A stretch of 64,000 nucleotides of DNA, taken from contig CALVCV010000001.1 of assembly GCA_944326155.1 (NCBI GenBank), positions 12,409 through 76,408 on the forward strand. The letters run 5' to 3'. The translations under genes were made by a program, and so were the position numbers. Below are positions 295 to 6,222 of the stretch, one piece after another. Under the pieces are notes generated by a model. The model searched no databases. It was not told where the DNA came from and worked only from the letters and a program-made list of their open reading frames with translations. The stretch's first letter is position 1. Every line of letters begins with the position of its first letter. This stretch comes from an uncultured Bacilli bacterium. Its GTDB lineage: Bacteria > Bacillota_I > Bacilli_A > ML615J-28 > CAG-313.

Positions 295-1800
295 ATGAGT
301 AAAAAAATTATAATTTTTATGATGAGTTCATTTTTGCTTTTTTCATTATTATTTATTTCGTTTTTTGAAGCCTCACATGCTAGCGGTGAAATAAATAATT
401 CAACAAATGGTCTCGGTAAAACTATAAATATTGTGAAAGATGGTTATTCTGAATTTGATTCGTTAAGCACAAACCATGATGTACTGAACAATGAATGGCT
501 ACAGTCACAATTAGAAAATGTTCAATCATATGATGTTACTAGAACAACAGAAGTTATTAGTGCAAATAGTATAGAAGAATATCAAAATCAATTTTCGATG
601 ATGATAAATACTGAAAATGCTTTAGGAGCTGAATTTAATAATATTGTATTTGCAAGTATCGAGAAAAATTTTAATTTTACTGGTCATTTAAATTATGAAG
701 ATAATATTAGTCAATTTTATTATACTATATATAGTTATTTACCACTATATGGATATCGGCTACCAAATCACTTGGATTTGTCATTGTTTAAAAATAACTT
801 GAGTCAAGAGTATGTTGGTTTTTTGAATCTACTATTTAGAAATGCAATAACACCTGATATCTTTTTTGATCGATTTGGTACTCATCTTGTATCTTCAGCC
901 CATTATGGAGGTGTGATGAGTTTTAATTATACTGCTACATCAAATACAATAGTGCTAAATGGAGATGTATATTTAAATTTAAAAAATGGTTTAAATGCCA
1001 ATATCTTAGATAAGTTAACAGCGGGGACTGGTTTTAACTTTGATTCATCTTTAATTTTAAATAAAAGTAGAAGTTTATATAATGAAAAATTTAGTATTCG
1101 ATCTTTAGGCGGTAGTATTTTTTCTACAACTAGTTATGAATTTTTTGTAAATAATTATTCTACATGGGTAGATTCCATTGATGAAGATAATGCTGCGTTA
1201 ATTGGGTTGGAACCTGGTGGATTGATACCACTTTGGGACATTTTGCCTGTTCAATATCAAAATAAGCGTCAACAATTTAAAAATATGTGTGAAAATTATA
1301 TATCAAATAGGAGCTACACTGAAGGGTTCAATCACAACATAGATACTGAAATCATAGAGCACGATTGTGTAGAGATTAGACTAACTGAAATATTGGTTGA
1401 AGATGGAGATAGATTTGAAAACCCTTATGATATAATAGATTTCTCTTCTTTTTCTAAGTACGGCGTTGAAGTTTTGAGAAATTTAGGATATACTACATTA
1501 CATTTTACTTTGGAAATAAAAATTAAAGAAAAAAATAAAGGTTATCAACAATTTTGGATATATTCAAAGTATGAAGATAATGCTGCAAATATTTTATTTG
1601 TAGAGGATGACTACGAAGCTGGTGGATCTGCATTAGCAGATGAATATATATTAGAAAATTTTACTATAAATATTTCTATAGATAAAATTGAAACTTCATA
1701 TGATGGAAATTTTTTATACCTATTGTTTGGTGCAAGTGGTGCCTTTGGTGATGATTGGTATAATAAAGATGTAATTTTAACAAATATTGAAATATCATAA
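295..1800 (+). CDS. Secreted MACPF (membrane attack complex/perforin) domain protein, putative pore-forming toxin
   Basis: RBS aaaggag 7 nt upstream. N-terminal signal peptide (hydrophobic core, SHA|SGE cleavage-like site). Residues 194-206 FGTHLVSSAHYGG (nt 874-912) match the MACPF signature [YWF]-G-[TS]-H-[FYL]-x6-G-G. C-terminal ~170 aa is a beta-rich domain of unknown function. Confidence 0.65.
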   Translation: MSKKIIIFMMSSFLLFSLLFISFFEASHASGEINNSTNGLGKTINIVKDGYSEFDSLSTNHDVLNNEWLQSQLENVQSYDVTRTTEVISANSIEEYQNQFSMMINTENALGAEFNNIVFASIEKNFNFTGHLNYEDNISQFYYTIYSYLPLYGYRLPNHLDLSLFKNNLSQEYVGFLNLLFRNAITPDIFFDRFGTHLVSSAHYGGVMSFNYTATSNTIVLNGDVYLNLKNGLNANILDKLTAGTGFNFDSSLILNKSRSLYNEKFSIRSLGGSIFSTTSYEFFVNNYSTWVDSIDEDNAALIGLEPGGLIPLWDILPVQYQNKRQQFKNMCENYISNRSYTEGFNHNIDTEIIEHDCVEIRLTEILVEDGDRFENPYDIIDFSSFSKYGVEVLRNLGYTTLHFTLEIKIKEKNKGYQQFWIYSKYEDNAANILFVEDDYEAGGSALADEYILENFTINISIDKIETSYDGNFLYLLFGASGAFGDDWYNKDVILTNIEIS

Positions 1801-1809
1801 TGGTGAAAT

Positions 1810-4605: not shown

Positions 4606-4614
4606 GGAGAATTT

Positions 4615-6222
4615 ATGTTTAAAAGTTTATTACAGAAAAGTATTTTGATAGTGTTGGCTATATGTATAAATATGTTTATTTTATCCAATACTTCTTTGCT
4701 ACATATAAAAGCTAGTATTTCAGAACCAATTACACCAAATGGTAATTATGTTCCATATATAAGTATTACCACTGAAATTTCAGAAAGTAAAAAAAATGAA
4801 TATATTACGAATGAAAACATATATGTTAACCATGGTGCAATAAGATTAGATGAACCTACTAATAAATATAATTCTCATTCCTATGCATGGTATAATCAGC
4901 AATATAATTCAAATATATATAAGATTAATTCTCCAAATGCATATATTAGTGATGGAAGTTATAAATTAAAGACAGATGGTATTGAAGTAGGTGATATAGT
5001 TTGTTACTATCGTGTTAAATTGAGTTATGATGATAATAGAACACAATTAACTTCAGTTGAACCATATTTAGCCCATTCTGCAAAAGTAAAAAGTATTGAT
5101 GGTGATTTTAACGTTTATGATTTAGAAAGTTTAGAAAATTTGACTCTAATTTCTAAATGGGGTGATGGTGGCTTATACGAGCATTCTGGTACAAATTGTC
5201 CATATTATTATGATTGCTTGCAAACAAACCCATATACTATTGATGATTTACATTTTGAAAATATGGATGATTTAGGAACAGATGATGCATTATTTTATAT
5301 AGAGGTGTATGGGCCAAATTATGAAAATTCAGTTTCTATTGAAATGAGTGAAAATCCAATTCTTTTATCTAAAAATTTACAAGCTGATGGATTCATCTTT
5401 TATAGATTAAATGTTCAATATGATGGTAATTTTGAAATAGAGACTTTTTCTGACTCTTTGGTAGATTTAAAATTATTTTCTAAAGATTTGAATTTAATTA
5501 ATGATGATACAATAACACAAACTGATGGTAGTACAAAATTGGTTACTACATTGTTATCAAATACGTATTATCTACGGATATCTTTTTTAGATGAAGAAGA
5601 ATATGGAAATGTTCTTACTTCTATAAAACGAATAATTACTAATAATCCAAACAATGAAAATGTTATTATAGCAGATAAAAATAACACGGTTCAATGTGGT
5701 AGTGAAGTAACTATTAATGGTGGAGCTTATGGTGGTAATACTTTGACTCAAGGTTTTACAAGAAATTTGTATTTAAATCCTGAAATTGCCCCATCTATTT
5801 CTAGACTTGATTATTATTGGTATTCAAGTGATACAAATGTAGCAACTATTAGTCAATATGGTACACTTTTTGCAAAAGACGGAACTGGAAATAAGAGTAT
5901 CGAAATTATTGCTGTATATAAAAATAATCCTTCAATTGTATATAAAAAGAATTTTATAATTAAAGAAGAGATAAAAACAGAAGAAATTATTATAGAATAT
6001 GAAATGACAATACCTATCAATTCTGTTACATCTATTGAATTAGATAATCAAGTCCCATATAATTGGATTCAATATTATACATGGAGTACAGAAAATAGTG
6101 CGATAGCAACTATTTCATCTTATGGCACTATTCGAGGTTTAGGAAGAGGTCAAACTACTTTTACTGGCATCTATGAATATAACACAAGAATTAGTATTTT
6201 GGTTACTATTTATGTGATTTAG
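4615..6222 (+). CDS. Secreted/membrane-anchored protein with two C-terminal Big_2 (bacterial Ig-like) domains
   Basis: RBS aaggag upstream. N-terminal hydrophobic signal/anchor. C-terminal repeats ...YYWYSSDTNVATISQYGTLFAKDGTGNKSIEIIAVY... and ...YTWSTENSAIATISSYGTIRGLGRGQTTFTGI... are typical of Big_2. Confidence 0.6.
   Translation: MFKSLLQKSILIVLAICINMFILSNTSLLHIKASISEPITPNGNYVPYISITTEISESKKNEYITNENIYVNHGAIRLDEPTNKYNSHSYAWYNQQYNSNIYKINSPNAYISDGSYKLKTDGIEVGDIVCYYRVKLSYDDNRTQLTSVEPYLAHSAKVKSIDGDFNVYDLESLENLTLISKWGDGGLYEHSGTNCPYYYDCLQTNPYTIDDLHFENMDDLGTDDALFYIEVYGPNYENSVSIEMSENPILLSKNLQADGFIFYRLNVQYDGNFEIETFSDSLVDLKLFSKDLNLINDDTITQTDGSTKLVTTLLSNTYYLRISFLDEEEYGNVLTSIKRIITNNPNNENVIIADKNNTVQCGSEVTINGGAYGGNTLTQGFTRNLYLNPEIAPSISRLDYYWYSSDTNVATISQYGTLFAKDGTGNKSIEIIAVYKNNPSIVYKKNFIIKEEIKTEEIIIEYEMTIPINSVTSIELDNQVPYNWIQYYTWSTENSAIATISSYGTIRGLGRGQTTFTGIYEYNTRISILVTIYVI

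Follow-up and report, generated by a model that had tools for sequence, protein, structure and literature searches.

Membrane attack complex/perforin (MACPF) toxins are an established weapon of gut Bacteroidales. To our knowledge, no comparable system based on a large pore-former has been described for the Gram-positive commensals of the gut. Here, we deal with a three-gene locus in a stretch of 64,000 nucleotides from an uncultured Bacilli bacterium (contig CALVCV010000001.1, positions 12,409 to 76,408 of the forward strand; this whole stretch is hereafter called the window), in which the gene for a secreted MACPF protein (open reading frame 1, ORF1) is followed by (i) a gene for an ATP-binding cassette (ABC) protein of the type VII superfamily (ORF2); and (ii) a gene for a secreted accessory protein (ORF3). 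Taken singly, the parts are of known kinds, namely MACPF toxins that carry a binding domain at the C-terminus, type VII ABCs, and surface modules of the PPC and Big_2 types. The apparent novelty lies in the conserved coupling of a MACPF protein to a type VII ABC in Gram-positive gut bacteria: our full-text searches turned up no description of a MACPF protein paired with an ABC transporter in Firmicutes, with FtsX, with MacB or as a gene-neighbourhood pairing. That the module is real and conserved is well supported, and it is probably antagonistic.

The best structural counterparts of ORF1 are Mpf2Ba1 from Pseudomonas (8b6u/8b6v), GNIP1Aa from Chromobacterium (6fbm) and Plu-MACPF from Photorhabdus (2qp2). 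All three share the layout of ORF1, namely a MACPF domain with two transmembrane-hairpin clusters (TMH1 and TMH2) and a C-terminal beta-domain, and Mpf2Ba1 is a proven pore-former (PMC10344926). Nevertheless, their sequence identity to ORF1 is only 12-15%, they come from Gram-negative, insect-associated bacteria whereas the ORF1 producers are low-GC gut Bacilli, and the C-terminal domain (CTD) of ORF1 has conserved motifs of its own, such as GxSGxxxDDWxNKN, unlike theirs. We know of no ABC partner for any of these three proteins.

Two other groups of pore-formers are of interest for comparison. BSAP-1 and BSAP-2 resemble ORF1 in being secreted MACPF proteins of gut commensals; they kill related strains, and immunity to them is encoded beside the toxin (PMC4999547). 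They differ in that they belong to Bacteroidales with a diderm envelope and in that immunity depends on a replaced target surface molecule, not on an ABC; furthermore, a sequence relationship between BSAPs and ORF1 is seen only in the MACPF domain. The cholesterol-dependent cytolysin (CDC)-like proteins (CDCLs), in turn, are pore-formers of the MACPF/CDC superfamily that are widespread in gut Bacteroidota and serve antibacterial antagonism (PMC11952106). They are a weaker structural match of ORF1 (8g33, Foldseek E 5e-6) and, while CDCLs need long/short pairs and activation by a C11-type protease, the ORF1 operon has neither; no second MACPF gene was found in the 64-kb window.

Regarding the transporter, the task of type VII ABCs is not to pass substrates through the cytoplasmic membrane. 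Instead, the energy of ATP hydrolysis is turned into motion of the extracytoplasmic domain (ECD), i.e. mechanotransmission, and these proteins act together with, or upon, extracytoplasmic partners (PMC5985334; PMC12646458; PMC7668044). The MacB family offers several precedents for action on Sec-delivered or endogenous toxins: MacAB handles the Sec-delivered enterotoxin STII; YknXYZ protects against the cell's own SDP toxin; AS-48EFGH lies within the AS-48 bacteriocin cluster; and BceAB detoxifies membrane-targeting peptides (PMC5985334). Lantibiotic immunity follows the same logic, since the producer is shielded from a membrane-active toxin by an expelling ABC (LanFEG) and/or a lipoprotein (LanI). 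The parallel is a functional analogy only: in the loci considered here, the slot next to the MACPF gene holds an ABC in most lineages and a lipoprotein in one locus (L063), and lantibiotic toxins are small modified peptides, unlike ORF1. LanFEG, moreover, has a different ABC fold.

ORF1 is a genuine member of the MACPF family, as judged from both its sequence and its predicted fold. The Pfam MACPF model (PF01823) matches residues 142-335 with E = 7.1e-12 (46.4 bits versus a cut-off of 21.5). The MACPF signature ([YWF]-G-[TS]-H-[FYL]-x6-G-G) that the initial annotation had read at residues 194-206 is present as F194-G-T-H-L-VSSAHY-G205-G206 and is conserved in a 60-sequence family alignment, where G195 and T196 reach at least 90% conservation and H197 and G205 are invariant. 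Other conserved features of the domain are its GLGxSINxVK start, G272-G273 and GLIPLWxLLP. The AlphaFold2 (AF2) model built on the 60-sequence alignment (mean predicted local distance difference test, pLDDT, 85.7; predicted template-modelling score, pTM, 0.76) shows the order of secondary-structure elements expected for the MACPF fold, in which a central bent beta-sheet is flanked by the TMH1 and TMH2 clusters. When compared with the Protein Data Bank (PDB) by Foldseek, it gave 139 matches at E <= 1e-3, all of them MACPF/CDC proteins, headed by Mpf2Ba1 (1e-13), GNIP1Aa (7e-13) and Plu-MACPF (6e-12), with Bth-MACPF, perforin, TgPLP1, MPEG-1, pleurotolysin B, C8/C9 and then CDCs next in the list, so that the proposed assignment stands on both counts. 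The best match of a sequence-only PDB search was TgPLP1, at E = 0.5.

Within the MACPF domain, the TMH1 and TMH2 clusters are modelled as helices (residues 93-105 and 113-126 for TMH1; 223-243 and 251-255 for TMH2), and both carry the alternating, period-2 hydrophobic pattern of amphipathic strands. Expressed as a z value against composition-matched shuffles, the period-2 hydrophobic moment is 2.0 for TMH1 in ORF1 (family mean 1.9) and 3.3 for TMH2 (family mean 2.5), versus -0.5 to 0.6 for three control segments put through the same test. Sequence, predicted fold and amphipathic hairpin pattern together thus give ORF1 the signature of a pore-forming MACPF, from which we infer pore formation. 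The CTD is modelled as nine strands at residues 355-500 with pLDDT >90; it conserves R362, D379, E412 and G416/Y417, in addition to the motif quoted above. At the opposite end, the signal peptide is seen as a hydropathy peak at residues 5-23 and, in the model, as a helix at 2-22 followed by disorder at 29-34; likewise, the family consensus has a hydrophobic N-terminal segment that ends in V-x-A.

Its sequence marks ORF2 as a type VII ABC: it has a nucleotide-binding domain (NBD) of FtsE/LolD type, four transmembrane (TM) helices and a big domain between TM1 and TM2. Pfam ABC_tran matches residues 22-168 (E = 3.5e-30), the best NCBIfam models for the NBD are FtsE, DevA, lactococcin-972 ABC and LolD, and its PDB matches include MJ0796, BceA, FtsE, LolD and YtrE. 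In the permease part, Pfam FtsX covers residues 806-924 (E = 5e-13) and hydropathy places TM2-4 at 797-914. A profile of ten permease parts, searched against the PDB, retrieved B. subtilis YtrF (2e-10), LolF (7e-10) and MacB (2.5e-9), followed by PsdB, LolE and FtsX. The alignment with YtrF extends into the ECD (profile positions 354-627), where a Porter subdomain and, optionally, a Sabre subdomain would be expected; this domain, for which no Pfam family was matched, keeps the core G.LP...DEIVIT...GK...IVGILDT across ten partner ABCs.

ORF2 had initially been described as a MacB-type protein, and this description holds for its architecture and superfamily: the FtsE/LolD-clade NBD, the four-TM FtsX-fold permease and the big TM1-TM2 domain are those of MacB and other type VII ABCs, and NBD and permease are fused as in MacB. 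However, the ECD is about twice as large as that of MacB, the Pfam model MacB_PCD (PF12704) finds no match in ORF2, and the operon contains neither TolC nor a two-component sensor nor a membrane-fusion adaptor of the MacA kind, the partner being instead a MACPF protein. Adaptors of the HlyD/membrane-fusion protein type do not recur in the related loci either. Given the lack of both a MacB_PCD match and an adaptor gene, ORF2 is filed in the type VII superfamily and not as MacB proper.

The three genes are co-directional and separated by gaps of 9 nt, exactly at the coordinates of the initial annotation (Table 1). Both gaps enclose motifs that resemble ribosome-binding sites (GGTGA and AAGGAGA) and, in consequence, ORF1-3 can be regarded as a tightly coupled operon. 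On the opposite strand, only short chance ORFs are found, and none of the three genes is overlapped by a long competing ORF.

When 1.84 billion representatives were searched exhaustively with HMMER for relatives of ORF1, 912 representative clusters passed E <= 1e-3, and 112 of these also passed E <= 1e-30; the relatives mostly measure 480-540 aa and align end to end over the MACPF domain and the CTD. A word-indexed search, on the other hand, found four, with the single sequence and with the 60-sequence profile alike. This second count is, therefore, a prefilter artefact, and rarity estimates derived from it would be badly wrong; as to the earlier statement that MACPF proteins are rare in Firmicutes, it is true only in relative terms. 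ORF1, with its AT-rich coding sequence and its protein rich in N, I, K and Y, is a case where indexed homology search fell short. The family comprises >100 sequence clusters, mainly on low-GC contigs from human-gut metagenomes, and the source records of its members name Bacilli bacterium, Staphylococcus sp. CAG:324 and metagenome-assembled genomes of Acholeplasmatales. One close homologue (a cluster member) is present on 438 contigs, a 66%-identical one is annotated at NCBI as 'MAC/perforin domain-containing protein', and Pfam MACPF also scores 43-51 bits in the relatives of loci L034, L042, L048, L050 and L063.

The gene neighbourhood was surveyed in 65 loci, each scored with hidden Markov models of four parts: MACPF domain, CTD, permease and NBD. 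In about 15 lineages, counted over MACPF+CTD genes with enough flanking sequence, one or two type VII ABC genes lie immediately beside the MACPF+CTD gene, at a distance of <=51 nt; the two exceptions are L063 and L042. The ABC gene comes after the MACPF gene in 14 lineages, while the order is reversed in L050-53 (NBD, FtsX, FtsX, MACPF); the various forms of the ABC partner are collected in Table 1. Conversely, the five lineages with a CTD-less MACPF protein (L010, L033, L034-44, L047 and L056/57) all lack an ABC neighbour, so that the presence of the CTD tracks that of the ABC partner across the census. No other recurrent gene family was shared across the neighbourhoods examined. The ORF1 family has a built-in and conserved partner from the mechanotransmission ABC superfamily.

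The two exceptions have other genes in the slot of the ABC. In L063, two MACPF+CTD proteins that are 33% identical alternate with two lipobox lipoproteins (~230 aa) that are 28% identical, an array that could correspond to a two-component pore or to two toxin-immunity pairs. An IS1595 transposase gene lies downstream of it, and in the second MACPF protein the GTH of the signature has degenerated to PSH. In L042, the slot holds a small polytopic membrane protein. As for the CTD-less proteins, one of them (L034:8001-12171; 431 aa; Pfam E = 8e-11) is a second MACPF paralogue on the same 632-kb contig as the trio of the sister species (L013); the gene after it encodes no ABC but a 930-aa surface protein with GDPD and Listeria-Bacteroides-repeat domains. 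In addition, directly upstream of a distant MACPF-ABC pair there is a module composed of PadR, HAAS, DUF4097, ABC and FtsX (794 aa) genes (L002:36-4805), which resembles an envelope-stress or resistance unit.

The full trio, whose conservation in other genomes had been put forward as a check, is found in at least six lineages. ORF3 comes directly after the ABC gene in all five homologues looked up, i.e. the 73%-identical orthologue of the sister species (L001) and those of L058, L059, L064 and L065, with 40-47% identity. As the genomic surroundings differ in four of these five, the trio can be regarded as a portable unit, nested in a broader family of two-gene loci. Confinement of ORF3 to the closest relatives was considered and rejected, given that the homologues at 40-47% identity also follow the ABC gene. 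The module as such occurs in unrelated contexts in L016, L025, L027, L031, L058, L059, L061, L064 and L065, and this patchy distribution agrees with the accessory nature that had been attributed to the locus. An origin in a mobile element or a defence system was also rejected: PADLOC matched nothing beyond the generic NBD, and the plasmid, phage and IMG/VR collections gave no matches.

ORF3 is predicted to consist of four domains. In the N-domain, which is specific to the trio, the invariant residues include N86-S-H-S89, A91-W-Y93, D127, R133, S155, S180-K-W-G183 and H190; a papain-like hydrolase of the NlpC/P60-CHAP kind was considered for it and rejected, as it does not combine a Cys-His catalytic pair on the helix/strand scaffold with detectable similarity of sequence or fold to that class. 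The middle domain is structurally similar to the PPC domain and collagen-binding domain (CBD) of collagenases. The two Big_2 domains noted at the outset are recovered by Pfam (PF02368, two stretches, E = 7.5e-7) and have an Ig-like fold with a Foldseek match to LigA. Proteins of the LRR_5/BspA type and S8 subtilases carry, at their extreme C-terminus, a counterpart of the last 190-240 residues of ORF3, which suggests a shared module for surface retention or binding; the Big_2 pair may be a surface-anchoring module common to this bacterial group. Its identity to the ends of many otherwise unrelated secreted proteins is 31-41%. Domain searches detected no wall hydrolase or peptidase domain in ORF1-3.

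Between the window and the sister species, ORF1 is 76% identical in the MACPF domain and 54% in the CTD; for ORF2, the values are 66% in the NBD, 44% in the ECD and 68% in TM2-4. The domains of ORF3 are 63-78% identical and the flanking housekeeping proteins 57-89%. The ECD, followed by the CTD, is consequently the most divergent part of the operon in this one species pair, a pattern that would fit a co-evolving contact or an arms race.

The interpretation that we favour, if only tentatively, is that ORF1 would be a Sec-secreted pore-forming toxin and that ORF2 would strip it from the membrane of the producer, both for release and for self-immunity. Cleavage of the signal peptide would free ORF1 on the outside of the producer's membrane, and its C-terminal beta-sandwich would bind a membrane or surface ligand; the MACPF domain would then oligomerise, and the TMH1 and TMH2 clusters would turn into amphipathic beta-hairpins, by which the membrane of the target is pierced. 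ORF2 would not transport the toxin across the membrane: the ATP-driven movements of its ECD would dislodge the toxin from the producer's own membrane, thereby achieving release and self-immunity in a single step. ORF3 would be a surface-retained accessory, found in one sub-clade only, that may aid targeting or processing. Self-protection is favoured because ORF1 has its own Sec signal and because the occupant of the slot after the toxin gene varies among lineages (an ABC, a lipoprotein or a small membrane protein), which is the pattern of bacteriocin-immunity genes such as those for LanFEG and LanI. Among the functions suggested in the initial annotation, this is the one retained, while dedicated export and a dcw-tied surface remodelling are disfavoured. 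Candidate targets are other bacteria, relatives that lack a wall, and cells of the host or of protists; the contact between ABC and toxin, as well as the immunity role, are presumed. If the toxin-plus-immunity reading were true, the locus would define, in gut Bacilli with small genomes, a new module for antagonism or for interaction with the host, and a protein pore-former would join the clients of type VII ABCs (EnvC, LolA, MacA, TesA and peptides). The prediction is directly testable by comparing ORF1 with and without ORF2.

Several points weigh against it: for no member of the ORF1 family is lysis, killing or immunity known, and Plu-MACPF and Bth-MACPF, which are two of its nearest counterparts in structure, are not known to be lytic; in order to reach another Gram-positive membrane, a protein of 55 kDa would need to pass through peptidoglycan; and the replacement of an ABC by a lipoprotein also fits a 'helper' role. 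The loss of the NBD in one lineage (L059) and the splitting of the ABC in another (L065) imply that ATP-driven work is not universally retained. Besides, the divergence of CTD and ECD comes from a single species pair, against a wide housekeeping baseline (57-89%).

The strict correlation between ABC and CTD in the census would also be expected if the MACPF protein were the extracytoplasmic client of the ABC, in the sense of FtsEX-EnvC or YbbAP-TesA, and the ABC were an activator and not an immunity device. The CTD would then dock on the ECD, and ATP hydrolysis would load, release or trigger the pore-former, for instance against a neighbour cell or for controlled permeabilisation. FtsEX-EnvC, LolCDE-LolA, MacAB-TolC and YbbAP-TesA all use a dedicated extracytoplasmic partner (PMC12646458; PMC7668044); in addition, a very large ECD (~510 aa) is specific to the family, evolution is fastest in the CTD and the ECD, which would suit an interface, and heterodimer-type versions with two paralogous fused ABCs exist. 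Nevertheless, we regard such partner activation as unlikely: the lipoprotein and the small membrane protein that take the place of the ABC in L063 and L042 cannot transduce the energy of ATP, L059 keeps a permease without an NBD, and known MACPFs assemble spontaneously on target membranes. Distinctly unlikely is the variant in which the type VII ABC would be the motor of the weapon and not its shield, with the MACPF protein docked by its CTD on the ~510-aa ECD and ATP loading or triggering the pore; if true, Gram-positive gut bacteria would possess a pore-former powered by ATP and controlled by contact or by a signal, and FtsEX/MacB-type machines would gain a new class of client. The high divergence of the ECD, with the CTD next, could also reflect a replacement of receptors as in BSAPs, the ECD of such an ABC being the toxin receptor on related strains and the linked ORF2 a resistant allele. 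BSAP producers carry a linked resistant orthologue of the target, and, to judge from the NBD-less L059, it would be the extracellular and membrane part that is kept. Bacteroidales MACPF toxins of the BSAP type target surface molecules (PMC4999547). However, a lipoprotein or a small membrane protein is unlike a receptor allele, no MACPF-less genome with a divergent ORF2 orthologue was encountered (though no search aimed at such genomes was made), and in the loci examined the ABC occurs only beside MACPF genes, so this possibility must be considered very unlikely.

In the window and in the sister species, the trio sits inside a split division and cell-wall (dcw) cluster, and ORF3 bears adhesin-like domains; several MACPF-fold proteins are, furthermore, non-lytic. 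These facts would suit a non-lytic envelope function, in which MACPF protein and ABC take part in surface remodelling, division or wall growth, as would the regulation of wall hydrolases by FtsEX-type ABCs (PMC7668044). However, the same module occurs in unrelated contexts in nine other loci or locus groups, for which reason a functional link to dcw was rejected; none of ORF1-3 has a wall hydrolase domain, the amphipathic TMH pattern is conserved and the family is patchy and accessory. In our opinion, an envelope function has very little chance of being correct. Finally, ABC genes beside bacteriocin genes often serve for export, and MacAB-TolC drives the export of the enterotoxin STII (PMC5985334), which might lead one to think of ORF2 as a dedicated secretion system that takes ORF1, and perhaps ORF3, over the cytoplasmic membrane. 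Such a role is extremely unlikely, and the export hypothesis was rejected on account of the Sec-type signal peptides that ORF1 and ORF3 themselves possess; moreover, the substrates of type VII ABCs are already outside the cytoplasm, STII itself reaching MacB via Sec (PMC5985334), and no peptidase C39 domain or double-glycine leader was found.

Table 1. Features of the locus, in window coordinates, and forms taken by the partner of the MACPF+CTD gene in related loci.
Feature	Position or locus	Strand	Basis or remarks
3' end of mscL	1..165	+	Context only; last ~55 codons inside the window
AT-rich hairpin and T-run, mscL intrinsic terminator, upstream operon boundary	156..203	+	RNAfold
Sigma-70-like promoter candidate, TCGACA-16-TAAAAT	234..261	+	10/12 consensus match
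Ribosome-binding site of ORF1, AAAGGAGA	283-290	+	Sequence inspection
ORF1, secreted MACPF protein, 501 aa	295..1800	+	ORF, Pfam, AF2, Foldseek
ORF1 Sec-type signal peptide, aa 1-30 (KK, hydrophobic core, SHA/SG)	295..384	+	Hydropathy, model; putative cleavage between SHA and SG
ORF1 MACPF domain, aa ~35-340	397..1314	+	Pfam, AF2, Foldseek
TMH1 cluster, aa ~93-135	571..699	+	Helical in soluble model, period-2 amphipathic pattern
MACPF signature, F194-G-T-H-L-x6-G-G206	874..912	+	Translation, family conservation
TMH2 cluster, aa ~218-262	946..1080	+	Helical in model, period-2 amphipathic pattern
ORF1 C-terminal beta-sandwich (CTD), aa ~345-501	1327..1797	+	AF2 model, family conservation
ORF2, fused NBD and FtsX-fold permease (type VII ABC), 931 aa	1810..4605	+	Pfam, NCBIfam, hydropathy, PDB profile
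ORF2 NBD, aa 1-245	1810..2544	+	Pfam, NCBIfam, PDB
ORF2 TM1, aa 268-286	2611..2667	+	Hydropathy 3.07
ORF2 ECD, aa 287-796, ~510 aa	2668..4197	+	Between TM1 and TM2
ORF2 TM2-TM4 and FtsX domain, aa 797-931	4198..4602	+	Pfam FtsX, hydropathy
ORF3, secreted four-domain accessory protein, 535 aa	4615..6222	+	Signal peptide, Pfam, AF2 pLDDT 90.1
ORF3 N-domain, aa 35-238, specific to the trio	4717..5328	+	AF2 model
ORF3 PPC/collagen-binding-domain-like beta-sandwich, aa ~239-345	5329..5649	+	Resembles collagenase PPC/CBD in structure
ORF3 tandem Big_2 Ig-like domains, aa ~346-535	5650..6219	+	Pfam, Foldseek
AT-rich hairpin and T-run, operon terminator	6271..6316	+	Free-energy folding
Single fused ABC gene, 826-931 aa	Window, L001 and similar loci, L002, L025, L027, L031, L058		
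Two tandem fused ABC genes	L016 group, L045, L048, L061		
Permease only, no NBD, 611 aa	L059:6151-7986		ORF3 kept
Split ABC gene, ORFs of 648 and 262 aa	L065:4222-6989		ORF3 kept
Exception: MACPF+CTD (514 aa), lipoprotein (228 aa), MACPF+CTD (500 aa), lipoprotein (232 aa)	L063:3771-8206		
Exception: 214-aa polytopic membrane protein	L042		In the slot after the MACPF+CTD gene

The operon is bounded on both sides by terminators, which the initial annotation had placed at 162-203 and 6275-6317. A consensus terminator scan of the block called none, and terminators were instead called by free-energy folding against 200 shuffles: hairpins followed by T-runs are found at 156-201 (18-bp stem, dG -19.2 kcal/mol, z -6.1) and at 6271-6314 (dG -15.8 kcal/mol, z -4.5), none of the 200 shuffles being as stable in either case, in good agreement with the earlier positions. 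The consensus scan missed the upstream terminator because its AT-rich stem has <3 GC pairs. The promoter in Table 1 is a candidate only, as promoter-like matches are no commoner in the region than in shuffles. G+C content is uniform, at about 25-30%, over the trio block and its flanks.

The upstream gene can be identified as mscL through a near-identical contig (L005), in which the gene 128 nt upstream of ORF1 matches Pfam MscL (PF01741). Downstream of the trio come genes for a class-B penicillin-binding protein (PBP), murE, mraY and murD, and the split dcw cluster has, in the window and in the sister species, the order rsmH, mscL, trio, PBP. The fragmentation of the cluster (L005:7373-21506; window 6350-13372) is apparent from its gene order: rsmH, aldose-1-epimerase (on the opposite strand), mscL, trio, PBP, murE, mraY and murD, after which a gltD-like oxidoreductase gene occurs instead of ftsW, murG or ftsQAZ. 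At window 13369-15768, a single ORF of 799 aa fuses cytidylyltransferase-like (NadD-like), CN_hydrolase and NAD_synthase domains, an unusual three-part fusion of NAD-synthesis steps. Further along the window, a T-box leader at 16153-16365 (136 bits) precedes a valS-like gene for a class-I tRNA synthetase (16410-19040), and positions 30576-30646 hold a ribosomal protein L21 leader (47 bits).

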